A stretch of DNA of 64,000 nucleotides from Candidatus Latescibacterota bacterium. GTDB lineage: Bacteria; Latescibacterota; UBA2968; SICM01. Both the position numbers and the translations under genes were made by a program. This document shows, one piece after another, positions 14,624-35,735 of the stretch; within the stretch, counting starts at the first letter, position 1, and each line of letters opens with the position of its first letter. Below the pieces are notes generated by a model. The model saw only the letters and a list, made by a program, of their open reading frames with translations, was not told where the DNA came from and did no database searches. The DNA lies in NCBI GenBank assembly GCA_965217865.1, contig CBDCJO010000002.1:2720001-2784000 (forward strand), written 5' to 3'.

Positions 14624-14650
14624 CAGGATTTCTTTACATCGATTGCCAAG

Positions 14651-16164: not shown

Positions 16165-16216
16165 TTGCTCCGGGCTTCTACTGAAAACACGATTAAAAAG
16201 CGAATATGCGTGGCCA

Positions 16217-17275
16217 TTGAAAAAATACGATGTGGTTGTAGTGGGATGCGGTCCCGCCGGCTCATCGGCGGCTCAGGCAGGTGCGTTGCGTGGGCTGTCG
16301 GTGTTGATTATCGATAGGAAGCGATCTGTAGGAGTTCCAGTAAGGAGTGGAGGCTATGTCCCTTCAGGGCTTCGGAGAAGGGTGCGGTTCGACGACGAGT
16401 GCATCCTCCAGAAAGTAGAAGGATTCTGCCTCTTCCTCCCGGATGGCAGAACCACCAGGGTTCAGGCCCCTGGATATATCCTGGACCGGTCTCGCTTTGA
16501 CAAGACACTCGCCATCTACGCATTAGAGAGTGGGGCTGATCTTGTGAATGGAACGGTCGTGGAAGTATCGGGGAAGCGGGTACGGTTCAGACGCGGCGGC
16601 CGGGAGGCGGAAGTTGAAGGGCAAGTAATCATCGGGGCAGATGGGCCTCGATCTGCCGTTGGACGCAGCATCGGAACTGCCAACGCGGAATTTTTGGTAA
16701 CCGTCCAGGCGGAGGTGGGGTTGAGGATTCCGTTCACAACGGCTGAAATTTGGTTTGATAGCCGCTGTGTCGGGGGTTATAAATGGATCTTCCCAAGCGG
16801 CCGCACAGCTCGGGTGGGAATCGTGTTATCCGCTCCCAGGGCGAATATGCTCCGAGGGCTGTTAAATGATTTCCTGGATAATTTGGCGGAGGAGGGAAGA
16901 ATTTACCGGAGGAGCATCTTGAGCTACAGTGGAGGTCCGGTTCCGGTAGGAGGGCCTCTTGACCCCCTGCAGAGTGGAAATTCAATCCTGGTTGGAGACG
17001 CAGCGGGTTGCGCCGATCCTGTCACCGGCGCTGGCATCGGCCCAGCAATTTTAAGCGGGACCCTTGCGGGGCGAATCGCTGCTGAGGCTTTATCCGACCA
17101 GGACATCCGGCACCTGATCCAATACAGGAAAACGCTGGAACGGGTTTTGCCTTTTCGTCAAATGGCCTACAAAAAAGCCCATGCAGAACGTTTGCGAGCT
17201 TCGGAGAATTTCGAGGGGCTCGCGGAAACGGCCTGGGGCGCGAGGGATTATCAATTCGAGGGGAACGAAATCTAA
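16217..17275 (+). CDS. Geranylgeranyl reductase-family FAD oxidoreductase
   Basis: VVGCGPAGS, DRSRFD, GADG, GGYKWIFP, GDAAG...DPVTGAGI. Confidence 0.85.
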   Translation: MKKYDVVVVGCGPAGSSAAQAGALRGLSVLIIDRKRSVGVPVRSGGYVPSGLRRRVRFDDECILQKVEGFCLFLPDGRTTRVQAPGYILDRSRFDKTLAIYALESGADLVNGTVVEVSGKRVRFRRGGREAEVEGQVIIGADGPRSAVGRSIGTANAEFLVTVQAEVGLRIPFTTAEIWFDSRCVGGYKWIFPSGRTARVGIVLSAPRANMLRGLLNDFLDNLAEEGRIYRRSILSYSGGPVPVGGPLDPLQSGNSILVGDAAGCADPVTGAGIGPAILSGTLAGRIAAEALSDQDIRHLIQYRKTLERVLPFRQMAYKKAHAERLRASENFEGLAETAWGARDYQFEGNEI

Positions 17276-17335
17276 TCGAAATTCGGTGTTTGTTGAAAAC
17301 AATTGGTGTTGGGATTTTGTAGAGAGGAGGTTAGA

Positions 17336-17614
17336 ATGAGCGTGACCGTTCGGATACCAACCCCCCTTCGGAATCTAACGAAGGATCAATCCGACATTCA
17401 GATCGAGGCTGCGACGATACGGGAGCTCCTTGATAATATCGAGGAACAGTACCCCGGAATAAAAGATCGGTTGATGGATGAACACGGAGAGCTTCGCCGG
17501 TTCGTGAACGTCTACGTCAACGAAGAGGACATCCGATTTCTTGACGGCATCAAAACGGACTTGTCATCCGGTGATAAAGTAGCCATTGTTCCCGCGGTTG
17601 CCGGGGGAGGATAA
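17336..17614 (+). CDS. cysO: Ubiquitin-like sulfur carrier (MoaD/ThiS/CysO family)
   Basis: GAGGAGG RBS; VRIPTPLR, FVNVYVNEEDIRFL, C-terminal PAVAGGG. Confidence 0.88.
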   Translation: MSVTVRIPTPLRNLTKDQSDIQIEAATIRELLDNIEEQYPGIKDRLMDEHGELRRFVNVYVNEEDIRFLDGIKTDLSSGDKVAIVPAVAGGG

Positions 17615-17757
17615 TAAATCGAGTCGTTGGGTGGATTCACGGGTGGGAAGATCGACATAGGAAGTCATGGTCCTGGAATCCAGGAAAAACTTTCGGCTGT
17701 CCGCTTCCCTTTTCTGTTTTCGCTTCCAAAAATCTCAATTCCTGACCCTAACCAGAG

Positions 17758-18690
17758 GTGAAGTCTTTGGCCGCACCGAGGGTAAACAGTGTCCTGGACC
17801 TGGTGAATGAGACACCGATGGTCCGTCTCAACCGGATCCGTCCTGCCGGGGGGGCGCAAATCTGGGCAAAGCTTGAGTTCTTTAATCCCGGGGGAAGTGT
17901 CAAGGATCGAATTGCACTGGCCATGGTGGAGGCAGCCGAGCAAAAAGGTATTCTCAGACCGGGCAGCACCATCGTCGAGCCCACGAGTGGAAACACCGGG
18001 ATCGGACTCGCAATGGTTGCGGCCGTCAAGGGATATCGTTTGATCATCACCATGTTCGAGGGTGTCAGCGAAGAACGACAGAAAGTTTTAGAGGCATTTG
18101 GAGCTGAGGTTGTGATGACACCCGCCCAAGATGGAATGCGAGGGGCGATCAAGGAGGCCTTGGCCCTCAAGAAAAAGCATCCCGAATACTTCATGCCCCA
18201 GCAGTTTGAGAACCCTTCGAATCCCCAGGCCCACCGACGAACGACCGCGTTGGAAGTCCTCCATCAGATGGAGGGACGGATCGATGCCTTTGTAGCCGGA
18301 GTTGGTACCGGCGGAACATTGACCGGGGTCGGGGAGGTCCTCAAACGGGAGTTGCCTGCCGTAAGGGTTATCGCGGTGGAACCGACCGATTCGGCGGTAC
18401 TTTCAGGAGGTCCGGCGGGGCCGACCGAGATCGATGGGCTTGGGGCAGGGATAATTCCACCGGTGTTGAATACGGAGGCCATAGATCAGATCGTTGCGGT
18501 CACAAACACAGAAGCCCGGCAGATGGCTCGCCGTCTTACCAGGGAAGAAGGGCTGCTTTGCGGATATTCTTCCGGGGCAGCCGCCCACGCCGCTGCGGTG
18601 GTATCTGAGGAAATGGGGGAAGGTAAAGACGTCGTTGTGATCCTGCCCGACACGGGGGACCGCTATATGAGTTCGATGCTGTTCGGCTAG
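17758..18690 (+). CDS. cysK: Cysteine synthase A
   Basis: NPGGSVKDRIA, EPTSGNTG, MPQQFEN, GVGTGGT, PDTGDRY. Confidence 0.9.
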   Translation: MKSLAAPRVNSVLDLVNETPMVRLNRIRPAGGAQIWAKLEFFNPGGSVKDRIALAMVEAAEQKGILRPGSTIVEPTSGNTGIGLAMVAAVKGYRLIITMFEGVSEERQKVLEAFGAEVVMTPAQDGMRGAIKEALALKKKHPEYFMPQQFENPSNPQAHRRTTALEVLHQMEGRIDAFVAGVGTGGTLTGVGEVLKRELPAVRVIAVEPTDSAVLSGGPAGPTEIDGLGAGIIPPVLNTEAIDQIVAVTNTEARQMARRLTREEGLLCGYSSGAAAHAAAVVSEEMGEGKDVVVILPDTGDRYMSSMLFG

Positions 18691-18765
18691 AGACCCGAAT
18701 AAACCAACGGACCAGGTCGTGCCGAAACCCAATCCCTAAGACCGATTCAACCCAAAGGGGTGCGT

Positions 18766-20901
18766 TCAATCGTACCCCTTTTTTCGTTCAACGCGTTCTA
18801 TGTGAGCCACCCGTTCTTTCACGAATTCGACAAAGGCGGTGTCGACCCGGCTCAGATTTAAAAAACGCCGGTAGGCGTTCAGGGCTTCAGGATAAAGGCC
18901 CAGATTGTATGAGACATTGCCCAGGGAGAAATAAGCCTTGGACTCTTGGGTATCAATTCTAAGAGCCTGATGATAGTAGACAATCGCGCTGTCCGGCATT
19001 CCCCGGGCGACAAATAGGTTTCCCAGGTTGAGATGAACACCTGCGTTTTTGGATTCGGACTGGAGAATCGACCTGAAGACCTCTTCGGCCTTTTTAATGT
19101 CATTCACACGATAGTAGATCACACCCAACCGTTTCCGAACCTCCGTCGCACTTGGGCAAAGAGAGAGTGCCTTCTGGCAGTGGGTAAGGGCATCCTGAAA
19201 GCGCCCCAGTTGGATATAAACCGAACTCAGACCCGCGTGGACGTACCAGGCGTTCGGCGTGTGGCTCAGGGCTTGCCGGTAGGCGTCCACGGCCTCGGAT
19301 GGGCGTTGCAGGTTTTTTAAAACCTCTCCCTTTGACGCCAGCACGTCCGAGTGAAAGGTTCCGTATCTGGACGAATTTTCCAGTTCGGAAAGGACCGTTT
19401 CCCAGTCCCTCCCTTCCCCCGCCCATGACAGAGCCCGGAAGTAATGCCGTTCGAATTCGATCTGCCGTCGCGAGATTTCTGAGGCTAGCAAGGCAATGGA
19501 CAAAAGGAAGATGGCCAGAATCAACCCCCAACCTGGTCCAGGCGACACCCGGCACCCCCGATCCGCCCCGGCCACGACACCCAGAAGCATGTAAAAAAAC
19601 ATCACGGTCTGGGGATGTTCCTTCGGAAATGCGAAGACGGCCACAACAAGAAAAGACACGAGCGAAATCGCTAACATCGGCGCAGCAATTCTTGCCTCTA
19701 AATCGGGGCTTCGACCCATTTTCACAAGACCCCTAAATCCGGCCGCTATCAGCCAGATAAAGACGGACAGCCCAACCAACCCGTATTCAGACGCGATCAG
19801 GAGGTAGTCGTTGTGTGGGCTGTTCATAAAAGTTCCCGGATGGGTCGTCGCTCCCCGGTCTTGAGCAGGGTAGACCCGCACCCAATCCCCCGGGCCTACC
19901 CCTATGAACGGAAAGTCCGCCACCATTCGAAGGGTTCCCTTCCAAGCAGCCAGACGGTATTCTACGCCGACATCTTTCTTAAAGAACGACGTCGCCGTGG
20001 TGGCAAGATCCGACCTCGACACGGTCAGGAAAGGGAGGGCTTTACCTTGAAGATCTGTTATGGACCTGCGGGCGGGAAGCACGGAAAGAAAGATAAAAAC
20101 GACCACGAACGCACCCGCCATCATCAGTTTACGACGGTCCATCCTGGACCGAATGGACCCCAGGATAGTCCGCCTCAACTCCGGGAAGAAGATCACGGCC
20201 GTACCCACCAAAGCGATCGCGACGGCGATCCCCAGCCACGCGCCTCGAGTTCGGGTATAGGAAAGATAGACCCCCATCAGCGCTGCGGAAAGTCCCGAAA
20301 AGAAGAGACCGGTCCGACGCCGCCCTTGAAGGAACAGAAGAATCGACAGAGGGCCGGAACAGACAAGATACTCAGCGGCAAAGTTACGGTTTCCGAAAGT
20401 CGCGCTGGGTTGCGCGTTGGAGGGGATGTCGAGGAACGCAAATCCGTGATATTGCAGAATTCCTATTGTAGCGACCAAGAGACCCGTAATCGCGTTTGTC
20501 CACAAAATCGGACGGAACCGCTCGAATGAAACCGCGTTGGCCCCGATCAAAAACAGGATGACCATGGCGGCCTGGTTGACCAATTCGGTCTGGGTGTCCA
20601 GCGAGTGAATCCCCTTGTGGGAAGAAATCAGCGCAACGCCCATAAGACAAACCGCAGGCAGGAGGAGTCGACCTGAAACCAGATGGATGTGTTGTCCCCA
20701 GCGCGTTTGGATGATCCAGCCCAGGCATGCGAGTGCGAGACAGACGTGGAGGGTTAGACGCTTTGGCAAAACCGAATATTCGAAGATCCCCGTCATCATT
20801 ACGAGAGGGACTGCTGCGACCATCAGGCAGAGGGCACCGGTCACCACACGTTCCCCGAACGATCCCGTCAAACCCCTAATTCCTTGATCCTCCCCTTGCA
20901 T
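18766..20901 (-). CDS. O-antigen ligase-like (Wzy_C) membrane protein with C-terminal TPRs, array copy F (likely true start TTG 20871)
   Basis: Many TM helices; PSATFGNRN, YTRTRGAW, YRLAAW, GVGPG, PHNDYL; TPR repeats. Confidence 0.85.
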   Translation of the reverse strand: MQGEDQGIRGLTGSFGERVVTGALCLMVAAVPLVMMTGIFEYSVLPKRLTLHVCLALACLGWIIQTRWGQHIHLVSGRLLLPAVCLMGVALISSHKGIHSLDTQTELVNQAAMVILFLIGANAVSFERFRPILWTNAITGLLVATIGILQYHGFAFLDIPSNAQPSATFGNRNFAAEYLVCSGPLSILLFLQGRRRTGLFFSGLSAALMGVYLSYTRTRGAWLGIAVAIALVGTAVIFFPELRRTILGSIRSRMDRRKLMMAGAFVVVFIFLSVLPARRSITDLQGKALPFLTVSRSDLATTATSFFKKDVGVEYRLAAWKGTLRMVADFPFIGVGPGDWVRVYPAQDRGATTHPGTFMNSPHNDYLLIASEYGLVGLSVFIWLIAAGFRGLVKMGRSPDLEARIAAPMLAISLVSFLVVAVFAFPKEHPQTVMFFYMLLGVVAGADRGCRVSPGPGWGLILAIFLLSIALLASEISRRQIEFERHYFRALSWAGEGRDWETVLSELENSSRYGTFHSDVLASKGEVLKNLQRPSEAVDAYRQALSHTPNAWYVHAGLSSVYIQLGRFQDALTHCQKALSLCPSATEVRKRLGVIYYRVNDIKKAEEVFRSILQSESKNAGVHLNLGNLFVARGMPDSAIVYYHQALRIDTQESKAYFSLGNVSYNLGLYPEALNAYRRFLNLSRVDTAFVEFVKERVAHIERVERKKGYD

Positions 20902-23261
20902 ACTTCGATCCGATCCTTTACAAATTGAAGTTGGGTCTTATCACCTTGGGCAACCTCCAAATAAAACCGGTAGGCTTCAATGGCATCCTGGTATCGACGT
21001 TGCGTATACAAAAAATTCCCCAGGGAAAGGTGAACCTCGGAAAATCCGGGTTGTAGTGAGATCGCCTTCCTGAAGGCATCTTCGGCATCTTTCAGTTTTC
21101 CAAGTTTCTCCAACACCAAACCGAGGCCCCAGTGCACGCTTGCATTCTCAGGTTCGATCTCCGCGATCCGCAGGTAGTTTTCGATTGCCCCCTGATAATC
21201 CCCCTTCTTTTGATAAGCCACCGCTAGATTCAAGTGCGCCTGGAGATAAGCCACCGCTAGATTCAAGTGCGCCTTCCTGAAACCTGGATCGATCCGAAAA
21301 ACCTCAAGGAACTCCTCAACGGCATCTCCGAATCGCTCTTGGGCAAGATAGGTGTTCCCCAGATTGAAATGAACCCCCGCGTCGTCCGCATCTACGTTCA
21401 GGACCTTTTGGAATTCCTCCGCTGCGCGATCCAGGTCCCCCCGTTCCAGAAAAATAACCCCCAGGTTGTTCCGAGAGTCCGTGGAAGAGGGACATAAGGC
21501 CAGAACCTTTCTGCAATGATCCATGGCCTCTTCGATTCGCCCCTGCTGCAAGAACAACGAACCCAGGCTCTCGTGGGCCTGCCAGTGGTATGGCGCCAGA
21601 GAGAGGGCCTCTCGATATGCGGCCTCCGCCTCACGAGGGCGTTCCAGGTGTTTCAAGGCGTCTCCCTTGAGGACCAGGATGTGCGGCCGAAAGCTTCCAT
21701 ACTCCAGGGCTCGTTGCGTTTCGGCCAGGAGCGTTGGCCATTCGGTCCGCGTTTTTCCCCAATAGTTGGCCATCAGGTAGTGTCGGTCGAACCACACCCA
21801 CCTCCAGGAGAGTGCTCCTGCGCCGAGAGGAACAAGAAGAAGAACGACCACGAGAAGGAGACCGTTCGTTCTGGAACGGATTTCGATCTGACGTTGTGAA
21901 GTTGACGCGGCCGCGACCCCGAGGATGAGGTGGGGAAACATCGCGGCGTGAGGCCAATCCCGAGGAAAATTTAGAAAGGCGTCTCCCAGATACGCAAGGA
22001 GGGAAAGGGAAAACATCAGCGCAGCAACACGGGTGCGTTTCTCTGGATCCCGGGCCATCCGAAACAGACATAGAAAACCGGCCAAAAGGAACCAGAGGTA
22101 TGTGCCAAACCCGATCAGGCCGTATTCCGAAGCGATCCAGAGATAATCATTGTGGAGATTGTTCATCACTATCCCGGGCGTGTTTGTCACCCCGCGGTCG
22201 TAATGCGGATAAGCCCGTTTCCATCCGCCGGGGCCTACGCCCAGGAGGGGGTGATCTGAGATCATTCGGATCGTAGCGCACCACGTGGAAAAGCGGTAGT
22301 CCACCCCCACGTCCCTCTGCAAAATCGACCTTGCCGTTGTAAGAACATCGGCCTTCGACGGGCTGAGTTGCGCCTCAATGGATCGTTGGGGAGGAAGGAG
22401 GGATAGAACGATAAAAAGAAAAAGAAATCCGAAAGCGAGGACGGATTTTCGACGATTGATCTCCGACCTTAAGGCCTCATACATCGATCGTCGCAATCCA
22501 GGCATGGCGGACAGGAGCCCACATACGAGCAGCACGGCTCCCCCTGCACCCACCCAGGCACTCCGGGTGCGGGTATAGATGAGGAAGACCCCCATCAGGG
22601 TCGTTGACAACCCCGATAGGAGCACGGGCGTCTTCCGCGAGGAGGTCAGAAACTGAAGAATCGACAGCGGGATGGCGCAGATCAAGTACTCTGCCGCGAA
22701 GTTCCTGTTTCCGAAGGTCGCGCTCGGAGGGGCGGCTGAAGGAATCCACGATACGGCCAAGCCGTGGTACTGGAGGACTCCCACCATGCCGACGACCAAC
22801 CCTGTGGCCGAACTTGCCCACAGAATCGGTCTGATCTGTTCCAGGGATAGGGAATTGGCCACAACGACCAAAAGGACGATGAGGGCGGCGTTTTTCGAAA
22901 GTTCCGTAAGGGTGTCCAGGGGATGCGTCGATCCGGGAGCCGAAAGGACGGCGACCCCCAGAAAACAGATCAAAGGAAGAAAAAGCGGGGTGGATACGAG
23001 GGACACGCGCCGCAATCTCAAGATGTGAACGATCCAGCCCAAGCAGGTGAGTGCGATGCAGAAGTTAAGCACCAGATGTTTCGGGGCCCAAACAAACGCA
23101 TATAACCCCGGCAGGTAGATCAGGGGAACAGCCGAAACCATCAGGCAGAGGGGGCCTACGACGAAATAAACGCCATGCGTAGCACCTCCCTGACTCAATC
23201 GAATCCGGCTTTTTGAACCTCCGTTTTTCTCCCGACTGATCTTTTTATCCCCTCTTCGCAT
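20868..23261 (-). CDS. Wzy_C-TPR protein, array copy E (likely true start TTG 23198)
   Basis: Same motifs (PSATFGNRN, YTRTRSAW, HPLLGVGPGGW, LHNDYL) with an extended TPR tail. Confidence 0.85.
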   Translation of the reverse strand: MRRGDKKISREKNGGSKSRIRLSQGGATHGVYFVVGPLCLMVSAVPLIYLPGLYAFVWAPKHLVLNFCIALTCLGWIVHILRLRRVSLVSTPLFLPLICFLGVAVLSAPGSTHPLDTLTELSKNAALIVLLVVVANSLSLEQIRPILWASSATGLVVGMVGVLQYHGLAVSWIPSAAPPSATFGNRNFAAEYLICAIPLSILQFLTSSRKTPVLLSGLSTTLMGVFLIYTRTRSAWVGAGGAVLLVCGLLSAMPGLRRSMYEALRSEINRRKSVLAFGFLFLFIVLSLLPPQRSIEAQLSPSKADVLTTARSILQRDVGVDYRFSTWCATIRMISDHPLLGVGPGGWKRAYPHYDRGVTNTPGIVMNNLHNDYLWIASEYGLIGFGTYLWFLLAGFLCLFRMARDPEKRTRVAALMFSLSLLAYLGDAFLNFPRDWPHAAMFPHLILGVAAASTSQRQIEIRSRTNGLLLVVVLLLVPLGAGALSWRWVWFDRHYLMANYWGKTRTEWPTLLAETQRALEYGSFRPHILVLKGDALKHLERPREAEAAYREALSLAPYHWQAHESLGSLFLQQGRIEEAMDHCRKVLALCPSSTDSRNNLGVIFLERGDLDRAAEEFQKVLNVDADDAGVHFNLGNTYLAQERFGDAVEEFLEVFRIDPGFRKAHLNLAVAYLQAHLNLAVAYQKKGDYQGAIENYLRIAEIEPENASVHWGLGLVLEKLGKLKDAEDAFRKAISLQPGFSEVHLSLGNFLYTQRRYQDAIEAYRFYLEVAQGDKTQLQFVKDRIEVCKGRIKELGV
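21212..21274. repeat. Exact 30-bp direct repeat with a 33-bp period (in-frame AHLNLAVAY x2)
   Basis: GATAAGCCACCGCTAGATTCAAGTGCGCCT at 21212-21241 and 21245-21274. Confidence 0.95.
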
Positions 23262-24464
23262 CTTTCGATCCGCTCTCGGACAAACGCGACACGGGCGGTA
23301 TCCCCCCCAGACAACCCCAGGTAAGCCCGATAGGCCGTCAGGGCTTCCTGAAAATTTCCAATGGCGTAGGTGAGATTTCCCAGGGCAAGGTGAGCCTGAA
23401 CGAGATCCGGGCGTACGGCGATGGCTTTCCGGTACGCGGACCCCGCCTCTTCCAACCTTCCTTCAGCCTTCAGGGAAAGACCCAAACCAAGCTGAGCATT
23501 GGCATCTTCAGGATGCCGATTCACCGCCTTCCGATAGTCCGCGAGGGCTTCGTTAAAACGTCCCTTGCGTAGATGGACATATCCTAGGTTTGAGTGAACC
23601 TCGGAAAGGTTGGGGTCCAGGCTGAGCGCCTCGGTGTAATAAACGAGCGCGCTGTCCAGCCGTCCCTGTACCTGGTGGAGCTTTCCCAAGTCCAGTCGGG
23701 CCTCCGCGTCGTTGGGGGAAGCCCGCACCGCGGATTTGAACGCCTCCTCCGCGAGGACGAGTCACCCGCTGGACTCGGCGGCCGAACTATCGTATCAGGC
23801 TTCACTGGTCCTTCTGTATTTCCTTTCGGCTAACCTTATTGGTTTTCAAAGTTTGCGATCCATATTTTGGGCAAGTGGCACAACGGGGCTGGTCGTTGCC
23901 TCGATCGGGATCCTCCAGTACCACAGCCTCGCTTTTCTCGGAATTCCGACAAATGCTCACCCGAGCGCAACCTTTGGCAACCGGAACCTGGCGGCGATGA
24001 ACCTGGTATGTGCTATCCCGCTGTCCGGATATCTCTTCGTGACGGCACGAGATCGGATCGCACTCATCCTGTCTGGTTTATCGGCATCTCTGATGGGTGT
24101 TTATCTGGTATATACGCGGACTCGAAGCGCGTGGCTGGGGATGGCGGGTGCAATTTTATGCGTGTGTGCGGTCGTTGCCCTCTGCCCTCATCTTCGAAGA
24201 CCCTTATTACGAGCGATTCGGTCGATGTTTGACCGTCGAAAGGTCTTCCTGGGGCTGGGATTCCTGGCCTTGTTTTCCATCCTCTCCGTACTGTCACCCC
24301 GGCAAGCCAGAATTCAAGACCGAGCCCTGCCTACTCTTACACAGGACAAGATCGATATAACCGCCACAGCCGCCTTGGTCTTACAGATGGACGTCGGTAT
24401 GAGAATGGGCTTCCGGAAGAGATTCCGCACGGAGATCGGGGACCACTTGGTCACGTGTACTCAT
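23195..24464 (-). pseudogene. Wzy_C-TPR array copy D, rearranged: short N-terminus, inverted internal TM segment (about 23745-24398, on +), C-terminal TPRs
   Basis: Minus strand MSTRDQVV... from 24464; plus strand TSHPLD...PSATFGNRN...YTRTRSAW...QMDVG; minus strand AEEAFKSAVRASPNDAEARLDLGK to the stop at 23195. Confidence 0.85.
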
Positions 24465-24692
24465 CGAATCCCACCCCTTTGGATCTGGTCTTCGCATTCG
24501 CCGATCCGTTCTCTTACAAACCGGGCGCGCGTTGAATCACATTCGATCAGAGGCAGTAAGGTCCTGTAGGCAGCCTGGGCCTCGCGAAAACGACCTTGCT
24601 CGAAGGTAATGTTTCCCAGAGCAAGGTGCGCCTGTGGCAGACCGGGTCGGATCTGAATGGCAGCCCTGAAGGCCTTCTCCGCCTTCACTAGT

Positions 24693-26524
24693 CCCTATAC
24701 AAGCGTGAATTTTTCTTGGTTTTAGTAGAAAAAAGTTGAAATGCCCCAGTTTTCAGGCCTATAGTTGTAGTATGAAAGACAAAAAGAGGCCATCAAAAAG
24801 GGGCATTTCAGATGAGAGAATACAGGAAGATTCTTCGGAACAGGGAAGCACGAATTGTCCGTCGTTTGCGTCGGAAGCAGTGGTGCAGTCAGGTCAAGCC
24901 TATGATGTCTGGGGGAAACATCCACTACGAGATGAGTGGGAAGGCCGAGGCGATCACGTGTGGGGGGATCGGCGCGTTTCACCACATGGTCCGCAGGGTT
25001 GGGCTGGTGAAAGAGATTGACCGTCATCTTCATCTTTTGAAAGTGCATTTGCCCTGTCACGAATCAGACCACGTTCTGAACATCGCCTACAATGCGCTGG
25101 TTGGTGGTCAACGCCTTGAAGACATTGAGCTGCGCCGGCAGGATGCCACGTTCCTGAACGCTTTGGGCGCTCAGCGTCTCCCGGATCCGACCACAGCAGG
25201 CGACTTTACACGTCGTTTCCGGCCATCGGATATCGAGACGTTGATGGATTGCATCAACCGGGTGCGCACCCGGATCTGGAAAAAGCGCGCCAGGGGCGAA
25301 CTCAAAGAAGCCCTCATCGACATCGACGGCACCCTGGCCACCACTCTCGGAGAACGCAAGCAGGGCATGGCCCTGTCATACAACGGTATCTGGGGATACC
25401 ATCCTCTCGTGGTCTCTCTGGCGAACACCAGGGAGGTGTTGTTTCTTGTGAATCGACCCGGCCATGTGCCCAGCCACGACGGTGCCGTAAAGTGGATCGA
25501 TCGCGCCATCGCGCTGGTCGCCCCTTTCGCCAAACGCATCTGCCTGCGCGGAGACACCGGCTTCTCACTCACCCGGCACTTCGATCGTTGGTCGGAAAAG
25601 GTCGACTTCGTCTTCGGCATGGATGCTTACCGGGGATTGGTCAAGATCGCCAAATCCCTGTCACAGAGCGATTGGGAGCCCTTTGAACGACAACCCAAAT
25701 ACCAGGTCAAGACCTCCCAGAGACAGAAACGCGAGAACGTGAAAGCCCGGATCATCCGGGAGCGCGGCTTCAAAAACATCCGACTTGCCAGTGAACGTGT
25801 TGCCGGGGTTTCGTATCGTCCTGCTCGATGCAGGAAGACCTGTCGACTCGTGATCCTCGAAAAAAACCTGAGCGTCGAACGCGGCGAAAACGCCCTGTTC
25901 GATGACAAGCGCTGTTTCTTCTACATTACCACCCGAAAAGATCTTACGGCCGCGGAAATCGTGAGGCTGGCCAATCGACGGTGCGATCAGGAAAACGTGA
26001 TTGAACAACTCAAGAACGGGGTCAACGCCATGCGGATGCCCGTCGACAACCTGATGAGCAACTGGGCTTACATGGTCATGACCGCCCTGGCGTGGAACCT
26101 CAAAGCCTGGTTCGCGTTGATGATCCGAAAGCGTGAGCGTCGCGATCAACTTCTGAGAATGGAGTTTCGCGCCTTCCTCCAGAATCTGATCTGGATCCCC
26201 TGCCAGATCGTGACCCGGGGAAGACAGATCATCTATCGTGTCTTGGGCTACAACCGGTGGATGACTGACTTCTTCCCGGCCTGGAACAGAATCAGATGGC
26301 TCAAACCGGCCTGACTGCCATGTCAGCACCTGTCGTCGTAACATCACAGGGACAAGTCCGTCCACCCCGGCTAAAACACGTCCGCAAACTCAGTTAATTA
26401 GACAATCGCATGCCGAAACAATCACAAAAACAGCCCAGACATCATCTCCACCAAGTCACAAGTCTGAAATGCTCCGAAATCTTGTATAACACACCGCTCA
26501 ACAAGCCTATTCGCTTATTTTAGG
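24693..26524 (+). mobile_element. IS1380-family insertion sequence (about 1.83 kb) with 6-bp target duplication ACTAGT
   Basis: ACTAGT at 24687-24692 and 26525-26530; imperfect terminal IRs CCCTATACAAGCG and revcomp CCTAAAATAAGCG. Confidence 0.9.
24812..26314 (+). CDS. IS1380-family DDE transposase
   Basis: 500 aa; LIDIDGT, GYHPL, RGDTGF, ENVIEQLKNG, NWAY. Confidence 0.92.
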   Translation: MREYRKILRNREARIVRRLRRKQWCSQVKPMMSGGNIHYEMSGKAEAITCGGIGAFHHMVRRVGLVKEIDRHLHLLKVHLPCHESDHVLNIAYNALVGGQRLEDIELRRQDATFLNALGAQRLPDPTTAGDFTRRFRPSDIETLMDCINRVRTRIWKKRARGELKEALIDIDGTLATTLGERKQGMALSYNGIWGYHPLVVSLANTREVLFLVNRPGHVPSHDGAVKWIDRAIALVAPFAKRICLRGDTGFSLTRHFDRWSEKVDFVFGMDAYRGLVKIAKSLSQSDWEPFERQPKYQVKTSQRQKRENVKARIIRERGFKNIRLASERVAGVSYRPARCRKTCRLVILEKNLSVERGENALFDDKRCFFYITTRKDLTAAEIVRLANRRCDQENVIEQLKNGVNAMRMPVDNLMSNWAYMVMTALAWNLKAWFALMIRKRERRDQLLRMEFRAFLQNLIWIPCQIVTRGRQIIYRVLGYNRWMTDFFPAWNRIRWLKPA

Positions 26525-28613
26525 ACTAGTTGGCCGTCGCCCTTCAGAGATAAGCCGAAGCCCAGTTGAACGTTGGCGTCCTCGGGATAGATCCGCACCG
26601 CATCCCGATAGTGCCGGAGGGCCTCATCGAGACGCCCCTGCAAAAGGTAGACATAGGCGAGATCTGCGTGCATCATAGGAAGATCCGGATTGAGACGGAT
26701 CGCCTCCTGATAATGTACGATCGCGCTGTCCAGTTGCCCCTTGGCCTCATAGAGTTTTCCCATGTTGTATCGCATTTCAGCGTTGTGAGGCGAAACCTGA
26801 AGGGCGGCCCGGAATTCCTGCTCGGCGAGTTCCGGTTTTCCCATCTGCAGATAGATCGCTCCGATATAGTCCCGGATATAGTTCGCGCTCGGACAGAGGT
26901 TCAGGGCGGTTTGACAATGGACAAGCGCATCCCGGAACCTTCCCTGCTTCAGGTAGACGAATCCGAGACCCTCGTGCGCGTACCAGGTATGGGGGGCTAC
27001 GGTGAGGGTCTGTCGATAGGCCTCTTCCGCTTCGGTATACCGCTCCAGATTTTGCAGGGCAAGACCTTTGAAAAACACCAGGTCGGAGCGGAAGGACCCG
27101 TATCGATTCGCCCGTTCGACCTCGGATAGGACAGCAGGCCAGCTCTTTTCTGACACCCCCCAGGAGAAAGCACCCAAATAGTGCCTGTCGAAACCGATCC
27201 GTCGCCGTGAGAGTTCTGCGCCGGCGGCGGATATGAAAAAAAGCGCACAAAGGATCGATCCTCTGATGACCGATCGGCTGGGGAGGATCCGACTTTCGGC
27301 CGTGGCCCCGGCCGCGATGCCGAATAGGAAGAAGGGAAACATTGCGGTTTGGGCTTGCTCCTTGGGGAATCCGAAGCACGCGGCCCCCAGGATCGACAGG
27401 ATCGAAGGTGCAAACATCGGGGCGGCGAGTTGATGAAATCGATCCCGGACCAAAGCCATTTTAAGCAGACACCTGAAGCCTGCCAGGAGAAACCAGATGT
27501 AGATGCCCAGGCCGATCAAACCGTATTCAGCGCCTATCCATAAATAGTCGTTGTGGGGTTTTCGGTGATATCCTTCGGTGGTAATCGTCTGGCCCCCATC
27601 ATACAGGGGATGTTTCCGGATCCACCCACCCGGACCGACACCAAACAGGGGATGGTCGGAGATCATTCTCAGCGTGCTCCCCCAAAACGCGAGACGCTCA
27701 GTGATGCCGGCATCTTTGAGTTCCTCCTTTTTAAACACCGACAGTGCTGTTGTGGCGATGCCGGTCTTGACATCGGGAACGGATCTGTGGCTTCGATGGG
27801 GAGGCAGTGCGGAGAGGATCACGAACATGATCAGGAGTCCCAGTGAAAGGAACCGTTTCCGCCTGTCCATCCCCGAGCGGACGGCCTCCAAAAAAGGAGC
27901 TCGAATGCCCCGACAGAGGATGAGCACCGCCCCGATGATGATCAACGCAGCCACCACTGAGACCCAAGCCCCCCGCGTGCGCGTATAGACCAGATTTACC
28001 GCCATCAAAGTTCCGGCCAGTCCAGAGATGAGCGAGGCCTCCCAGCGGCGGACGAATAGATATAAAAGTCCGGACAGGGGAATGGCGCAGATCAGATACT
28101 CCGCAGCCAGGTTGCGGTTTGCGAAAGTCGCACTGGGAAGGGCGTTGGAGGGAATTCCTGAGAAAGCGAGTTGATGGTACTGCAAAATTCCGATCAGGGA
28201 AACGATCAAGCCGGCGACCGTGGAAGTCCATAAAACAGGGAGGAGGCCTTTCTGGGTGAGGCCGTTCGCAGCCAAAAAAAACAGGATGATCAGGGATGCC
28301 AGGTTGACGAGTTCAACAAGCGTGTCGACCGGATACGTGGTGGCATGGGCCGAAACCAGTCCGACGCCCAAAAAGCACAGCGCAGGCAGGTTGAGGGGAC
28401 TTGATACGAAACCCGCGTCCCTGCCCCATCCCATATGGACAAACCATCCGGCGCAGCCTATGGCCAGGCAGACTTGAAAGGCCAGCCACTTTGGCAGCAT
28501 GGCATACTCATAGATCCCCGGAATATAGACAACGGCAACCGTGAAGGACATCAAACAGAGGGCAGCGACCGTCACGATCGGGCCCGCTATGGAGAAGCGA
28601 TATCCTCCCGCTT

Positions 28614-30879
28614 CTATTTTTCGATCTTCCTCATGCATTGTTCGATACGCCCGCTTACGAATCCAACCCGGACGGAATCCCCATGAGAGAGGTCCAGGTA
28701 GGTCCGGTAGGCCTCCAAGGCTTCCTTAAATTGACCGACTTCGTAAGAGACATTTCCCAGGGCTAAGTGGGCCTGCCCGAGGCCGGGTCGAAGCCCGATC
28801 GCCCGGCGGTATGCCCCGATCGCTTCCTCTGCATGACCTTCTGCTTTCAGCGCGAGACCAAACCCCAGCTGAACATTGGCGTCATCGGGGTACGCCTGAA
28901 CGGCCTTCCTGTAGTGCGCGAGGGCGACCCCCGTGCCTCCCTGAAGAAGATGGGCATACGCCAGGTTGGCGTGGGGCTCGGAGCGTTCTGGAGCAAGCCG
29001 TAGGGCTTCCTGGAAATACACGATCCCGCTGTCGAGCTGCCCCCGTGCCTGATGGAGTTTTCCCAGGTCCAGGTGGGTTTCAGAATCATCAGGGAGGGTG
29101 TGAAGCGCCGCCCGAAACGCCTGTTCCGCTCTGTCGAGTTCTCCCATCCGTCTGTAGATCTTTCCGATATAACCATGAATATAATTTGCATCCGGACAGA
29201 TGGACAAGGCCGTTTGAAAAGGCGTAAGGCCTTCCTGGAAACGGTCCTGCTTCAGGTAGGAGAACCCAAGGCCTTCGTGGGCATACCAGGCGTGCGGCGT
29301 ATAATCCAGGTTCTGCTTGTAAGTCTCCTCCGCCTCGATGTAGCGTTCAAGGTTCTGCAGGGCAAGACCTTTGAAAAACAGGATGTCGGATCTAAAATTT
29401 CCGTATTCCAGAGCGTGTTCGGTTTCCGATAAAACCGATTCCCACTTCCCTTCCGAGTCGGACGCTCCCCAGGAATAGGCGAGAATGAAGTGTCGGTCGA
29501 AGCCCATACGGCGCCGGGTGATTTCTGCCCCACTTGCCGGGAGAATGACCAGGAGGGCCAAAAGGCCCCGCCCGAGCCACGGGGATCGGAGCTGCGCGCT
29601 TCCCCGGTTCGTTCTCCCGGCAGCGATCCCGAAAAGGAGATACGGAAACATGGCCGTTGGAGGTTGATCTTTCGGAAAACCAAAAAACCCCGCTCCAAGG
29701 AGGGAGAGGATGGAAATCGCGAACATCAACCCCGCAATGCGCGATAAGGCATCGGAGTTGAGGACCATGCCACGAAGGCACTTGAACCCCGCGGCCAAGA
29801 ACCAGATATAAACCCCCAGCCCGATCAGGCCGTATTCAGACCCGATCCAGAGAAGGTCATTGTGGGGACGCTTGTGATAGCCTTTGGTGGTAATCGTTTC
29901 TCCGTTGTCATAGAGCGGATGGGTCCGCACCCACCCCCCGGGCCCGACCCCCAAAAAGGGGTGGTCGGCCAACATCCGCTTTTGTCCCGAGTTGGCCGCT
30001 CACACTCTGGGGGGGAAGACTTGAGAGGACGACGAACAGGATCAGGTATCCCATCCCCAGAATTCGTTTCCGTCGGTCGATTACGGACATCAGGGTGTCC
30101 AGCACCTGTTTCCGCAATCCTTTCCAGACGAACAGGAGGACGCCAACACCCAGAAGGGCACCGAACATCCCGACCCAGGAGCCGCGAGCGCGCGTGTAGA
30201 CAAGAAAAGTTCCCATCAAGGCCCACGAGAGGCCGGACAGGTGAAGGGAGGCCCGATTCCGGGAAGCGAGGAAGAGAATCATTGATAATGGGATAGTGCA
30301 GACCAGGTATTCTGCCGCAAAGTTTCGGTTCGCGAAAGTTGCGCTTGGAGGGGCCGCAGAGGGAATATCGAAAAAAGTCAGATCGTTAAACTGAAGAACG
30401 CCGATCGATCCTATGACCATGCCCGTGGCCGTGCAAGTCCATAAAATCGGCCTTGTTTCCTGAAACGATAAGGCATTGGAGACGACGAGAAACAATACGA
30501 TAAGGATACCCTGGTTTGCGAGTTCAACCAGGGTATCCAGGGGATGGGTGGTCTTCCAGGAGGAGAGAATGGCCACCCCAAAAAAACAGATCAATGGAAG
30601 GATAAGGGGCGTATGGATCAGGTGGACTCGCCGGCCCAATCCCGATCGGACAAGCCAGCCCAAACAGGCCAGGGTGAGGCAGAAATATAGGGCGAATACC
30701 TTTGGAGCGAGAGCATATTCATAAATCCAGGGGAGGTAGATCAGGTTGACCGAGGGGATCATCAGGCAGAGTGGGACAACAACCCCGTAACCGGACGGTT
30801 TGTCCCCCGCCTCGTTTTGAATTCTTCTATTCGAAGAAGGGTTCAGTCCGTGGCCTGTTGTTTTATCCTTATTTCGCAA
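28614..30879 (-). pseudogene. Wzy_C-TPR array copy B, split by an internal deletion and frameshift at about 29971-29979
   Basis: N-half ORF 29908-30879 ends ...TKADV; the C-half starts RMLADHPFLGVGPGGW in another frame; the RLxxW segment is missing. Confidence 0.85.
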
Positions 30880-33143
30880 TCCACAACCCGGTCATGAGCG
30901 AATCGTGTGAAAGACGGATCCCCCCTCCAATGATTCAAGAAGGTCCGGTAAGCCTCCAAGGCATCCGAATACCGACCCTGGTCGAAGAAAAGATTTCCCA
31001 GGGAAAACGAGCCTTGAGCGAATCCCGGTTGGATCTCGACCGCTTTCCTGAGTGCGGCTTCCGCCTCGGGCAGGCGTCCTGCGGCCTCAAGAGAGAGCCC
31101 AAGACCCCATTGGATGGCCTGTTTATCCGGGAAAGCCCGGACAGCCTCCAGGTAGTGGGGGAGGGCTTCCTTGAGACGGCCTTGTATCCGGTAGATGTCT
31201 GCCAGGTTGGTGTGGGTGTAAGGAAGCGGGTCGATGCGAAGGGCTTTCTGGTATTCGACGATCGCACTGTCGGGCTGATTCATGGCCACAAAGAGATTGC
31301 CCAGATAGTGGTGCGCCCGGACATCCCTCGGGTCTGCCTTGAGAACAGTCCGAATCTCCTCGAGGGCGCGGGGCAGATCCCCCATCTGATGGTGGACCAT
31401 CGCCAGATTGCTTCGCACATCGAGGGCGTCTGGACAGATGGACAGCGCGACCTGGAAGTGAGAAAGGGCTTCATCGAGCCGGCCCTGCTGTAAATAGACC
31501 GAGCCCAATCCCGAGTGAATGCGCCAGGCATGAGGCGTATACCCCAGGGCGCGCAGGTAAGTCTCCCCCGCTTCCTCAAGTCGCTCCAAGTGCTGCAGGG
31601 CCACACCCTTGAAGGCCAGGATGTGGGGACGGAAAAGACCATTTTCCAAGGCTCGGGGGAACTCTTCCAGGAGGCCGGGCCAGTCCCTCCGGACCTTTCC
31701 CAGATAGAGTGTGTTGAGATAATGCCGGTCGAACCGGACCCGGAACCAGGAGAGTCCGACCCCACTCAACAATACGATAAGCAGAGGCACGAGGATGAAA
31801 AGGCCTTTCTTTCGGAGGTCGATCGGATCCCCCCCAGTAGCCCCCGCAATTATTCCAAAGGCCAAGAAAACAAACATCGTAGCCTGGGGGTGTTCCCTCG
31901 GGAATCCGAAGAAAGAAGTTCCCAGATACGACAGGATGCAGATGGCCAACATAACTCCCAAGATTCGGGAATCGGGTAGGGGATGCCGGGCAAGTTGGAA
32001 CAAGCATCTGAAAACAGCCGTAAGGAGCCACAAATAAACGCAAAGCCCGATCAATCCAAACTCTGCGGCAATCCAAAGAAAGTCGTTGTGAGGCCTTCTG
32101 GGAGTCCCGTACGGTTCGATCGTGGCCCCCCCGTCATACAAAGGATAAACCCGCTTCCAACCCCCAGGCCCCACCCCCAACAACGGATTTTCTGCCACCA
32201 TGGAAAGAGTACTGCGCCACATCGCCAGCCGTTCCCGGTGAGATCGATCGTGGTAAACTTCCAGATCACCCCCAAAGACCGACGCTGCCGTCGTCAGGAT
32301 GTCCGCCTTCGTCTCTGTGAGATAGGGACTCCGCGATCTATGTGATGAGGGATCCGCAGGAAGGACTGACAGGGCCGCGAACAGGATCAAAGCCCCCCCC
32401 GCCAACCATCTCTTACCCCTCAAACCAGCCCTCAAGGCTTCCATCACCGGACGCCAAAGACCCGGCCAGATCGCCACGAAGACTGCCACAAGCAAAAGGG
32501 CGCCGGTCATTCCAACCCACGCACCCCTTGCGCGGGTATAGATCAGGTAAACCCCCATCAAGGTCGTTGAAAGACCGGATATGACGAGGACGATCCGCCG
32601 GTTAGACGTAAAGAAAAGAAACCCTGAAAGCGGAATGGCGCAGACCAGATAATCAGCCGCAAGGTGGCGCTGGGGAGAGCTGCAAGAAGGGATGTCCAGG
32701 AAGGCCAGGCCGTGAAACTGCAAAATCCCGATCACGGCGACGACAAGTCCCGTGACAGAGCTGGTCAAGAGGATGGGGCGAATCTGTTCCGGGGAGAGGG
32801 TATTGGCCACCACGAAGAACAGGACGAATAAGGCGGCCAGGTTTACGACTTCGACCAGAGTATCCAATGGGTGGGTGGTCGACGGAGCGGAGAGCAGGGC
32901 GGCGCAAAGAAAACCGAGCGCTGGTATCAGAAGAGGATTGAAGGAGACGCGGAAGTTGCGGCCCCACCTGGTCTGGATGATCCAGCCCAGGCCGGCCATG
33001 GCGATAGAGAGATGTAGGCTGAAAAACTTTGGGGAAAAAGCTGGTTCGTAAATCCCCCTAGGTAGGACAAGGGGGACGGCACAGACCATAAGACAGAGGG
33101 CACCCACGATAAGACGTGCGCCGATTGAAGAGACGTGGACCAT
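30843..33143 (-). CDS. Wzy_C-TPR protein, array copy A (PSATFGNRN motif damaged)
   Basis: 766 aa; YTRARGAW, RERLAMW, GVGPGGW, PHNDFL, TPRs. Confidence 0.82.
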   Translation of the reverse strand: MVHVSSIGARLIVGALCLMVCAVPLVLPRGIYEPAFSPKFFSLHLSIAMAGLGWIIQTRWGRNFRVSFNPLLIPALGFLCAALLSAPSTTHPLDTLVEVVNLAALFVLFFVVANTLSPEQIRPILLTSSVTGLVVAVIGILQFHGLAFLDIPSCSSPQRHLAADYLVCAIPLSGFLFFTSNRRIVLVISGLSTTLMGVYLIYTRARGAWVGMTGALLLVAVFVAIWPGLWRPVMEALRAGLRGKRWLAGGALILFAALSVLPADPSSHRSRSPYLTETKADILTTAASVFGGDLEVYHDRSHRERLAMWRSTLSMVAENPLLGVGPGGWKRVYPLYDGGATIEPYGTPRRPHNDFLWIAAEFGLIGLCVYLWLLTAVFRCLFQLARHPLPDSRILGVMLAICILSYLGTSFFGFPREHPQATMFVFLAFGIIAGATGGDPIDLRKKGLFILVPLLIVLLSGVGLSWFRVRFDRHYLNTLYLGKVRRDWPGLLEEFPRALENGLFRPHILAFKGVALQHLERLEEAGETYLRALGYTPHAWRIHSGLGSVYLQQGRLDEALSHFQVALSICPDALDVRSNLAMVHHQMGDLPRALEEIRTVLKADPRDVRAHHYLGNLFVAMNQPDSAIVEYQKALRIDPLPYTHTNLADIYRIQGRLKEALPHYLEAVRAFPDKQAIQWGLGLSLEAAGRLPEAEAALRKAVEIQPGFAQGSFSLGNLFFDQGRYSDALEAYRTFLNHWRGDPSFTRFAHDRVVDCEIRIKQQATD

Positions 33144-33200
33144 CGGAAAGGTCTGTTACTCCAAACACCCGTCGTGTGGGGATTGGCATTTGGTTCTAGG

Positions 33201-33461
33201 TCAGGGTGTTCCTATCCCGTTGACCAGTCGCGTTAGACGAGACTTGTAACGGGCTGCGGTGTTGGCGTGGATGACCCCTTTTTGTGCAGTCCTGTCGATC
33301 ACGGGGATTGCGGCCTTCAGGGCTTCTTGAGCGGATCCCGGGTCGGGGGCCGTCCGCACCTTCTTAATCGCGGTCCGCAGAGTAGACCTCAACGCGACAT
33401 TCCGGAGACGAGCTTTCTGCGAAGTCCGGATTCGCTTTCGCGAGGATTTGAGATGGGCCAA
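33201..33461 (-). CDS. rpsT: 30S ribosomal protein S20
   Basis: AHLKSSRKRIR...RN...LRTAIKK...ID...KGVIHANTAARYKSRL; GAGGAGG RBS. Confidence 0.97.
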   Translation of the reverse strand: MAHLKSSRKRIRTSQKARLRNVALRSTLRTAIKKVRTAPDPGSAQEALKAAIPVIDRTAQKGVIHANTAARYKSRLTRLVNGIGTP

Positions 33462-33615
33462 ACAAACCTCCTCAGGAAATTAAACGATAAGATTGTCTCA
33501 ACTCGGCAAGAATTTCCACATTCACACCCTTAAAAGGGACATCCGCGTGACACACATGGTCCAAAATATTTGAAACAAATTAACCATTACCACTATATAT
33601 GACATGGTTTTACTT

Positions 33616-33630
33616 TGGCACAGAGATTGC
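33616..33630 (+). promoter_or_regulatory. sigma54 (-24/-12) promoter, divergent from rpsT
   Basis: TGGCACAGAGATTGC matches the consensus TGGCAC-N5-TTGC. Confidence 0.7.
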
Positions 33631-33867
33631 CTCTGCTTTTTTCCAATCCTCTTAAGGAGCAAAACCTAAATCTATCATACCTGCGAAATTGATCTGGGTT
33701 TGTCGGCTTGTGACAGGCCTGTTTCTAAGGCCTATGGGACACAATTACACCAACATATGAAACATTGAAACTTATGGGCTTTCAACTCCGAAGTCAAGGG
33801 AAAAGACTCCCTTGGCTGCTCTTCGCTGTTTCCTCAACGGTTCAACCTCAAGAAAGAGAGAAAAACC

Positions 33868-34747
33868 ATGAAACCTCGATACCTGGTTAGCCTTCTTGCA
33901 GGAATTTGCCTGGTCTGCGGCGTCGGACGCTCCGCGTGGGCGGCCTCGGCCGTTACGTTGCCCGACGAGTTTCCAAACGGAGCCACGGAAACGCCCGACA
34001 AGAGCATTCACACGCGATTGGAAGCGTATGACTGTTGGGATGCAATTCAACCTGGGGAGTTCGTTTCGTCTCGAGGCCGGACTGGAGAGAGGTTTGTCCG
34101 ATGATTTGCCTGAGCTGACCGGGTTGGTAGGCATTCGGATCGTGGGCCGGGGTGGAAAAAAAGCCAGAAAGCTAGAGATGGAGCGTGAGAAGATCGCCAC
34201 GGAGGAGCTGGGTGGCGTCAAGGAGGGGGAAACCGTGCAGGTGGCCGTGGCGAACTTCGCCGGACTTGAGGATCAACGCGCAGGAAAGAAGGTCGGCGAG
34301 CACATCCGATCCGTCCTCTCCTCTTACAACAAGGTGCGCATCGTGGCCTTACGAGAAGATCCCGTGTTCCTGGATCTGGATGGAGCGCTCGAATTAGCAA
34401 AAGCCAGCGGGGCTGACCTGGTCATCACAGGGAGAATACTCAAATACAACATGGTCCGAATGCCAAGCGCACAGGTCCCCCTCATCGTCGGGTTTCCCAA
34501 GACCGTTTCGGAAGTGGAGGCGGATATTCGAGTCGTCGAACCCAAAAAGGGAGCGATGGTGCTTTCCGGAAGGTTGAACGGGCGGGGGGAGCAGCGACAG
34601 GGTATCCGGTTGCTGCCCACCAGCAGCGACGACCAGATGACCTATCTTGGAGCCCGGGAGAAGGAGCAGCTGAGAGATAAGGCCGTTCGAAATCTGGTGA
34701 CGCATCTGATCGCCGCGATGAGAACAAATTTCAAGTGGATGAGATAA
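33868..34747 (+). pseudogene. Secreted or outer-membrane protein with a CsgG/TolB_N-like C-terminal domain; signal peptide and body are in different frames
   Basis: 33868 ORF has a signal peptide (..AWA-A); the second frame has amphipathic strands then VAVANF...LAKASGADLVITGRI. Confidence 0.5.
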
Positions 34748-34787
34748 TCAGCTGAAAAAACAGGATCTTATAGACCTCTATTTCACT

Positions 34788-35687: not shown

Positions 35688-35735
35688 TCTGTATTCCCAA
35701 AACACGAAAGACGGTTAAGATAGGGTGTTACCCAA

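Follow-up and report, generated by a model that had tools for sequence, protein, structure and literature searches.

Candidate protein O-glycosyltransferases in a partly broken tandem array of WaaL-fold genes from a Latescibacterota bacterium

The window analyzed here is a 64,000-nucleotide stretch of a Candidatus Latescibacterota bacterium genome (contig CBDCJO010000002.1, positions 2,720,001 to 2,784,000). Six minus-strand genes lie head to tail at 18766-33143, between cysK and a gene we take to encode a protein like ribosomal protein S20, and each combines a Wzy_C membrane domain with a tail of tetratricopeptide repeats (TPRs). We lean, somewhat, toward the reading that this array encodes protein O-glycosyltransferases similar to WsfB of Paenibacillus alvei that act on giant surface proteins, and that it is decaying alongside loss of the likely acceptor. 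The Wzy_C plus TPR architecture is itself known; new in the window are the rebuilding of the array from a single paralogue and the loss, at strain level, of the likely acceptor.

Fold and enzyme class of the array copies

The genome of the window (G000; 96% complete, 2 contigs, 9.3% contamination) was compared with 60 relatives, giving 61 genomes of the class. The bacterial family of the window, f1, includes G000, G001, and G002; f2, f3, and f4 are other families, and g4 and g13 are genera. Copies were named A to F in transcription order within the array, with copy G outside it, and L116, L117, L121, and L126 designate loci of relatives. A Pfam scan scored five long open reading frames (ORFs) at 72-81 bits for Wzy_C (PF04932; cut-off 31.7, E 1e-20 to 1e-22) and also detected TPRs. 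The motifs quoted in the initial annotation of the window are present. The stop and start codons of the array copies overlap or abut. That annotation had also described six diverged head-to-tail paralogues and a seventh at 40851-43211, and this was confirmed: the membrane domains of the window's copies are 46-60% identical, the TPR tails 32-50%, and the DNA only ~64-68% over long stretches, and the copies are therefore not strain variants of one gene. The seventh, copy G (40851-43211, minus strand; 786 aa), is intact and belongs to the same young clade. An eighth close copy, G000:C2:3608265-3610526, had been overlooked; it is broken or late-starting, because a TAG lies inside its first predicted helix.

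Copy F (18766-20901, minus strand; 711 aa) is intact and was used for the structure models. Its full-length model had a pLDDT (predicted local distance difference test score) of 92.5. Since the full-length alignment or model listed only TPR proteins as matches, the membrane domain was folded alone, with a pLDDT of 93.1. This model matched WaaL (7TPG, E 3e-8; 7TPJ, Z 23.1, root-mean-square deviation 4.2 Å over 351 aligned residues, 16-18% identity), and the next structural matches were the SEDS (shape, elongation, division, and sporulation) proteins FtsW and RodA at Z 11. A PDB sequence search with the membrane domain returned 0 matches, and no NCBIfam family exceeded its cut-off for the copies, the models for IctB and for an exosortase-associated ligase giving weak matches only. 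Arg219, Arg316, and His363 (copy F numbering) are present in 67 of 69 rows of the clade, the exceptions being the broken copies B and D. The key residues of E. coli WaaL are given as R215, R288, and H338 in the available text of PMC3643930, and the two triads were equated by motif order, not by residue superposition. Thirteen membrane helices were counted in the copy F model, with the SATFxNRN, YTRTR, RLxxW/GVG/HND, and FP loops and the TPR tail all on the same side, which in this model would be the periplasmic one. On the strength of the structure search and the conserved residues, we are confident that the copies are WaaL-fold undecaprenyl diphosphate (Und-PP)-glycan transferases, as the initial annotation had proposed; this confidence extends to the enzyme class alone.

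With WaaL as the best structural match, the copies could in principle be canonical lipid A-core O-antigen ligases; the contamination of the assembly, together with a duplication in copy E that is absent from run contigs, could similarly point to a mis-assembly of strain variants. Both ideas are largely refuted, and we consider them very improbable. LpxC was found in 0 of the 61 class genomes and a KdtA domain in 1 of 61, and LpxB was not found in G000, with positive controls; the lack of LpxC makes canonical WaaL function unlikely, and the missing lipid A genes favor the initial annotation in setting the copies apart from lipid A-core ligases. Mis-assembly is contradicted by the contigs of public runs, by the divergence of the copies, and by syntenic arrays in many relatives.

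The nine-gene locus of relatives and its candidate acceptors

Eight of the 60 relatives have 7-14 matches to the array genes, and the other 52 have 0-3. In a search of the phylum, 23 of 168 genomes matched at E<=1e-25, 17 of them with at least 2 matches; no array match at this threshold was found in genera g4 (0/21) and g13 (0/15). Latescibacterota relatives carry a ~45-kb locus with nine ordered paralogues, and G050, G097, and G098 share one order, each on a single contig. The first side of the locus consists of cysK, rpsT, and seven ligase-TPR genes. The divergent side starts with genes for one or two giant proteins (~1,700-1,800 aa), a ~1,300-aa protein, a TPR lipoprotein, and a 463-aa protein, and continues with the eighth ligase, a lipoprotein, an HNH gene, a WcaJ-like priming enzyme, and the ninth ligase. 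The order is the same in G099, G114 (six in the array), G115, and G117 over the parts retrieved. The array directly faces the giant-protein gene in G050, G042, G034, G097, G098, G099, G115, and G117, and the WcaJ-like priming enzyme lies within the locus in families f3 and f4. In the f1-type locus seen on one contig in L116/L117, the start of the giant gene faces rpsT, ompA, five open copies, and then cysK. In G001-like loci (L021:650-1399, L116:2462-3262, L114:106-876), an OmpA-domain gene immediately precedes the first array copy, coming after rpsT in L116; it is not at that place in the window.

Two quick IQ-TREE analyses, with support from the Shimodaira-Hasegawa-like approximate likelihood ratio test only, were used to relate the paralogues. 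The first had 94 rows, leaving out pieces shorter than 75% of the profile, with copy B read through with X and copy D entered as a fragment; the second had 63 rows, without G114, copy D, and position 3 of G099. Nine position-specific groups were recovered with support of 98-100 across families f3 and f4. TPR tail length is group-specific (e.g., ~187, ~222, ~300, and ~330 aa), apart from a few outliers and some broken copies. Tail and membrane-domain identities were 41/41% and 57/53% between orthologues, compared to 28/35% between paralogues, in which the tails are the less conserved part. All array copies of G000, G001, and G002 form one clade (support 100) inside the position-7 group (support 100), as a short-branched radiation. 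From this nesting, the window's family rebuilt its array from one gene: the position-7 paralogue was re-expanded to 5-8 copies, replacing the others. Birth-and-death evolution, as the initial annotation had it, is thus supported by the trees within the window's bacterial family. Its suggestion that the TPRs select different acceptors suits the nine orthogroups of relatives, given their tail lengths and conservation, and does not carry over to the window's younger copies.

A fixed gene order with one priming enzyme for nine ligases would also be expected of an assembly line, in which each paralogue adds a different Und-PP block and the tails guide the polymer to the 463-aa protein for export. 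Wzy_C is also found in polymerases, and the SEDS polymerases rank next after WaaL in structure. A strict assembly line should not, however, tolerate the replacement of all other paralogues by one, as happened in the window's family. No Wzz, Wzc, or Wza gene was noticed among the annotated locus genes, no dedicated search having been made, and 16 of 29 array-free f2 genomes also encode the 463-aa protein. We judge polymerization to be quite unlikely.

Synteny and co-loss make the giant cohesin/C-terminal domain (CTD) proteins the likely candidates for acceptors of the array enzymes. These proteins have cohesin and FlgD-Ig domains above cut-off, with dockerin and most type IX secretion system (T9SS)-tail matches below it. 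Their Ser+Thr content is 15-23%, compared to 7-12% in four cytoplasmic controls. The N-terminal region of the giant protein matches array genomes only (7/9), with none in G000 or G002; the best ESM Atlas score for this region was 0.76, and no useful lead was obtained. The sequon D(S/T)(A/I/L/V/M/T) was enriched in one of seven giant-protein rows (p 0.004) and in the lipoprotein (p 0.018), both values being uncorrected.

All 5 genomes tested encode SprA, a C25 sortase-type protein, and PorV, and the class looks as if it has a T9SS-type system without lipopolysaccharide (LPS); the window also carries Omp85 and LolC/E-like genes. With these proteins present and yet no lipid A pathway, some other anchor would be needed, and the copies might then be TacL-like glycolipid ligases that place a glycan on a non-LPS lipid, possibly the anchor used by a PorU-like sortase for surface proteins. 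Such an activity would also explain the linkage of the array to cargo genes, and TacL itself is a precedent, counting against protein acceptors, for a Wzy_C enzyme acting on a non-LPS glycolipid (PMC5727136, available text). In genus g4, however, no array was found (0/21), and yet its one tested member, G012, keeps SprA, C25, and PorV. Nine paralogues with distinct TPR tails would suit protein surfaces better than one lipid, and TacL, at 397 aa, is about as long as plain WaaL. Glycolipid ligation seems to us unlikely.

Lesions, strain variation, and loss of the surface-protein gene

Strains were compared using 4 public runs from 4 studies for 18300-38200 and 4 runs, one of them repeated, for 27000-46500. 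All run evidence (X1, X3, X5, X9, X12, and X14) consists of assembled contigs; X1 is possibly the source of the assembly, and the X9 strain is ~4% diverged from the window. The contigs of X1 match 18300-24715, except for a 33-nt skip, and 26501-38094 without other differences, and one X9 contig spans the whole array. Three small-share run rows (0.11-0.17, both RNA runs included) are labeled as sponge metagenome, from which neither habitat nor expression is established.

Copy A (30843-33143, minus strand; 766 aa) is an open ORF with a damaged SATFxNRN loop. An insertion of 1 nt (32684) and a loss of 16 nt (behind 32660), 24 nt apart, together restore the frame, and most of the conserved loop is gone. 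This lesion is found in X1 only, the loop being intact in X3, X5, X9, X12, and X14. The paired indels would yield a full-length, probably inactive protein, and may be a selected suppressor avoiding polarity, or chance. Copy B (28614-30879, minus strand) is split by a deletion of ~95 nt (size from X9 record offsets) between 9-nt direct repeats (29970-29978), with which the RLxxW arginine is lost and the reading frame shifts. Both X1 and the major X3 contig carry the deletion, X9 does not, and full-length alleles of B occur elsewhere (P0015, P0110, and P0112). Copy C (24461-28638, minus strand) has an intact membrane domain and a TPR tail interrupted by an IS1380-family insertion sequence (IS) at 24687-26524 (plus strand; transposase 24812-26314), which has a short target duplication and 26 near-full-length matches in the genome; the last ~75 codons of C follow at 24461-24691. 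The element is absent from X9 (24686->26525 skipped) and from a minor X5 contig, and alleles of 779 aa exist.

Copy D (23195-24464, minus strand) is rearranged. It consists of a ~19-codon start (24464-24408), residues ~107-324 inverted onto the plus strand (23756-24407), and the tail (23195-23755), with two deletions. The inversion is bridged in X1, X5, and X9, and X3 shows, in a minor contig of depth 2.8, the opposite-strand joint 23755->24407. An invertible switch at D was rejected, as no long inverted repeat lies at its ends among the 25 longest listed and the two deletions accompany the inversion. Copy E (20868-23261, minus strand; 797 aa) is an open ORF with an in-frame 33-nt duplication (21212-21244) that is skipped by contigs of X1, X3, and X9 (3 of 4 runs) and is absent from other E alleles. 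The duplication is private to this assembly and is not confirmed as a lesion. The initial annotation had counted lesions in five of the six array copies; those of A, B, C, and D stand, and that of E does not, leaving four of six broken.

Only D and F, the latter frameshifted by +1 at 19578, are broken in X9 (2/6), compared to A-D (4/6) in the window. In the 90% clusters of other assemblies, copies A, B, C, E, F, and G have full-length alleles alongside differently broken ones; some of the fragments may be contig ends or assembly errors. Background breakage was estimated from 274 ORFs of 21 G002 regions, 94 of which had matches of at least 50% identity (73 intact, 14 flagged, 7 partial). On inspection, 7-8 of the 14 flagged ORFs were judged to be opposite-strand shadow frames, giving a background of ~8%, or 16% with partials. 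The probability of at least 4 of 6 copies being broken is 0.0005, 0.007, and 0.038 at backgrounds of 8, 16, and 25%, respectively. For C, E, and F, 67 listed strain differences, part of a list with more than 1,000 others, divide into 40 synonymous and 27 nonsynonymous changes, compared to 25% synonymous sites (ratio ~0.2); this small and possibly biased sample suggests purifying selection on these copies until recently. Gene conversion between copies was rejected, as no long near-identical tract was found (best 48-83 nt at 77-81%).

To account for the lesions, the initial annotation had offered surface-glycan diversification or decay. Under diversification, strains would be selected to turn off different copies and so vary their surface glycans. 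Different copies are broken differently across the assemblies of the species, breakage exceeds background, the indels of A restore its frame, and X3 has the minor opposite-strand joint at D. The lesions themselves are one-way, however, being a 95-nt deletion, an IS insertion, and an inversion with two deletions; among the 25 longest inverted repeats listed, no long one pairs the ends of D; and the damage in the window's strain extends to the likely acceptor, to the 463-aa gene, and to a TPR-less Wzy_C gene (44933-46379). Adaptive switching is accordingly improbable in our estimate. Diversification fits the lesions less well, and they most likely record decay.

Across from the array, at 33868-34022 (plus strand), is a remnant that the initial annotation had missed. 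It comprises the first 51 codons of a giant cohesin/CTD surface-protein gene, with signal peptide and mature N-terminus, and over 52 aa its product shares 60% identity with the beginning of the ~1,700-aa giant protein of G001. A deletion joint at 34021/34022 fuses these codons to the downstream 463-aa gene at residue 226. The C-terminal half of that protein (residues 226-461; 34022-34747, plus strand) has a weak CsgG-like match below the Pfam cut-off, and an outer membrane location for the protein is a guess. Between the two joint points, contigs of G001, linked by 55-nt overlaps, have a giant gene and a 1,237-aa gene. Contigs of X9 extend 7,382 and 2,685 letters past the two sides of the joint, and a contig of X12 extends 81. 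The X9 contig depth is 29.5 on one side of 34021/34022 and 19.5 on the other, which could stem from a mixture of strains or arrangements in the sample.

X9 has intact copies A, B, and C plus extra DNA at the joint. In L116 the start of the giant gene is intact and 5 of 5 copies are open. In G042 all three giant genes are broken and 4 of 9 ligases frameshifted; in G050, of the same genus, all are open. Separate deletions of the giant genes are found in L121, where the TPR lipoprotein is joined to position 2 and position 6 has a stop, and in L126, where the 463-aa gene is joined to position 7, which itself has a stop, the eighth ligase being in pieces.

Several observations weigh against protein O-glycosyltransferases that decay with loss of their acceptor. 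The deletions in L121 and L126 remove neighbors in one event and are not independent co-loss. Copy D is broken and copy F is frameshifted in X9 despite the extra DNA at its joint, so decay needs no such deletion, and in G098 the giant genes are intact, but position 7 carries a stop and the start of position 5 is split. IS-rich genomes may lose both gene sets for general reasons, and nine other cohesin matches remain in G000. As for the enzymes and their donor, PglL_A and Wzy_C_2 were not detected in any copy (Pfam, E<=0.001), the Bacteroidota sequon is not enriched in the other six of seven giant-protein rows, and the assignment of WsfB as an S-layer O-oligosaccharyltransferase (O-OTase) is itself only a prediction. 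No full-length orthologue of the locus priming enzyme was found in G000, G001, or G002, which makes the donor proposed for the window's family less certain; G000 has one priming-transferase domain and 7 flippase-family matches.

Related systems, neighboring genes, and implications

WsfB combines Wzy_C with C-terminal TPRs, and its TPR arm has been proposed to hold the acceptor (PMC2943079, available text). Like the array, WsfB and the Geobacillus stearothermophilus WsaB with the TPR protein WsaA are described as bringing together Wzy_C and TPRs in a locus with a large surface protein and a priming transferase. This linkage is found in f3 and f4; the window has the 51-codon remnant, and f1 has no locus priming enzyme. 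Unlike WsfB, a single gene in a monoderm, the present system has 5-9 paralogues in fixed order in lipid-A-less bacteria with T9SS-type cargo, and the likeness drawn here is one of domain content and gene linkage. The WaaL proteins of Cupriavidus metallidurans (7TPG/7TPJ) and E. coli share the fold and the Arg/Arg/His residues, whereas the array copies have an extra C-terminal helix and TPR tail, occur in many copies, and belong to a class with no lipid A-Kdo pathway. PglL/PglS and TfpO/TfpM also have a Wzy_C core with Arg/Arg/His and a gene beside the presumed target, and O-OTase genes adjoin their target in 21 of 31 cases (PMC3643930). The array copies differ from these in giving no PglL_A or Wzy_C_2 match, in their long TPR tails, and in having giant cohesin/CTD proteins instead of pilins as neighbors.

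TacL (RafX), the lipoteichoic acid ligase of Streptococcus pneumoniae, resembles the copies in having Wzy_C without LPS, but it is short, single copy, and has a glycolipid acceptor according to the available text. General O-glycosylation in Bacteroidota, a related group, shares T9SS-type cargo with the system described here; no OTase has been assigned to it, and YfhO has been proposed (bioRxiv 10.64898/2026.07.27.740950, available text). The sequon is not generally enriched here, and the candidate enzyme family differs. Eukaryotic TMTC1-4 are GT-C proteins with TPRs; the comparison is one of architecture only. The TMTC/PMT fold is not among the structural matches listed, where WaaL stands far above all others. 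Most known O-OTase and ligase systems rely on one enzyme or a few. A literature search, with most subscription journals outside its coverage, found nothing on an ordered nine-gene system or on Latescibacterota O-antigen ligases, and the available main text of a paper on Latescibacterota metagenome-assembled genomes has no mention of O-antigen, LPS, or secretion (PMC12993501).

The cysK gene (17758-18690, plus strand) anchors the array on its downstream side, in convergent orientation, across the relatives examined, and the gene at 33201-33461 (minus strand), putatively named S20-like from its sequence, is a further synteny anchor. Two other genes of the conserved locus remain in the window. 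One encodes a Ser/Thr-rich predicted lipoprotein (34788-35687, plus strand) with strong matches in 8 of 9 array genomes, of 61, and two weak ones elsewhere; the other is an HNH-domain gene (35736-36314, plus strand), recognized by Pfam and synteny, whose product is encoded at the same place of the putative glycosylation locus in three families. The genes at 36499-37326 (plus strand) and 49031-49909 (minus strand) encode ~280-aa proteins whose sole Pfam match is a C-terminal UVR motif, the first being syntenic in G001. The gene at 37405-40752 (plus strand) encodes a 1,115-aa protein in which a peptidase MA domain is fused to a WD40/TolB-like propeller and an Omp85 barrel. The TPR-less Wzy_C gene (plus strand) is split by a 1-nt frameshift near 45241 that is absent in X9, X12, and X14. 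Three more distant Wzy_C genes lie outside the array clade (G000:C2:1301336-1303297, C2:~2906500, and C1:404605-405915), and the last abuts a flippase match and may be a polymerase. A sulfur module (13895-18690, plus strand) encodes a phosphoadenosine phosphosulfate reductase, a CysM-like protein, a ThiS/MoaD-like carrier, a geranylgeranyl-reductase-like protein, and CysK; it is conserved in relatives, where it adjoins the array and the pyruvate phosphate dikinase gene. At 60116-60562 (plus strand), an IS200-like transposase adjoins a GT4 glycosyltransferase.

In the mechanism we propose, a priming phosphoglycosyltransferase and a Wzx-type flippase, genes for which are present, would supply an Und-PP glycan. 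The membrane domain would bind Und-PP by way of Arg219, Arg316, and His363 and transfer the glycan to a hydroxyl, by analogy with WaaL and PglL. The TPR tail would hold the acceptor, with a different site, protein, or glycan for each ancestral paralogue. The putatively glycosylated acceptors would be Ser/Thr-rich cohesin/dockerin proteins with a T9SS-type CTD, encoded head-to-head with the array, and these would then leave through the SprA/PorV/PorU machinery. In the window's family, the tree shows that re-expansion of the position-7 paralogue replaced the other enzymes. The window's strain lost ~10 kb or more, including surface-protein genes, and its copies A-D carry inactivating lesions; the loss may have led to the decay.

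A wider picture is conceivable, which we put forward tentatively and with more doubt than confidence: this lipid-A-less class may glycosylate a T9SS-secreted cohesin/dockerin coat with nine specialized O-OTases, each with its own TPR arm for a site or glycan; one family may have rebuilt the team from a single member, and several lineages may independently have shed the coat and then the enzymes. Strains ~4% apart that differ in the DNA at the joint and in their surviving enzymes constitute a natural experiment. The window's array is largely a decaying remnant, and G050, G097, G099, and L116 are therefore better experimental material. Nine ordered paralogues with conserved TPR tails and a candidate substrate next to them, in an organism without lipid A, would allow a direct test of TPR arms as determinants of acceptor specificity in WaaL-fold enzymes, with a bearing on glyco-engineering and on the sequence-based prediction of O-OTase as opposed to ligase function.

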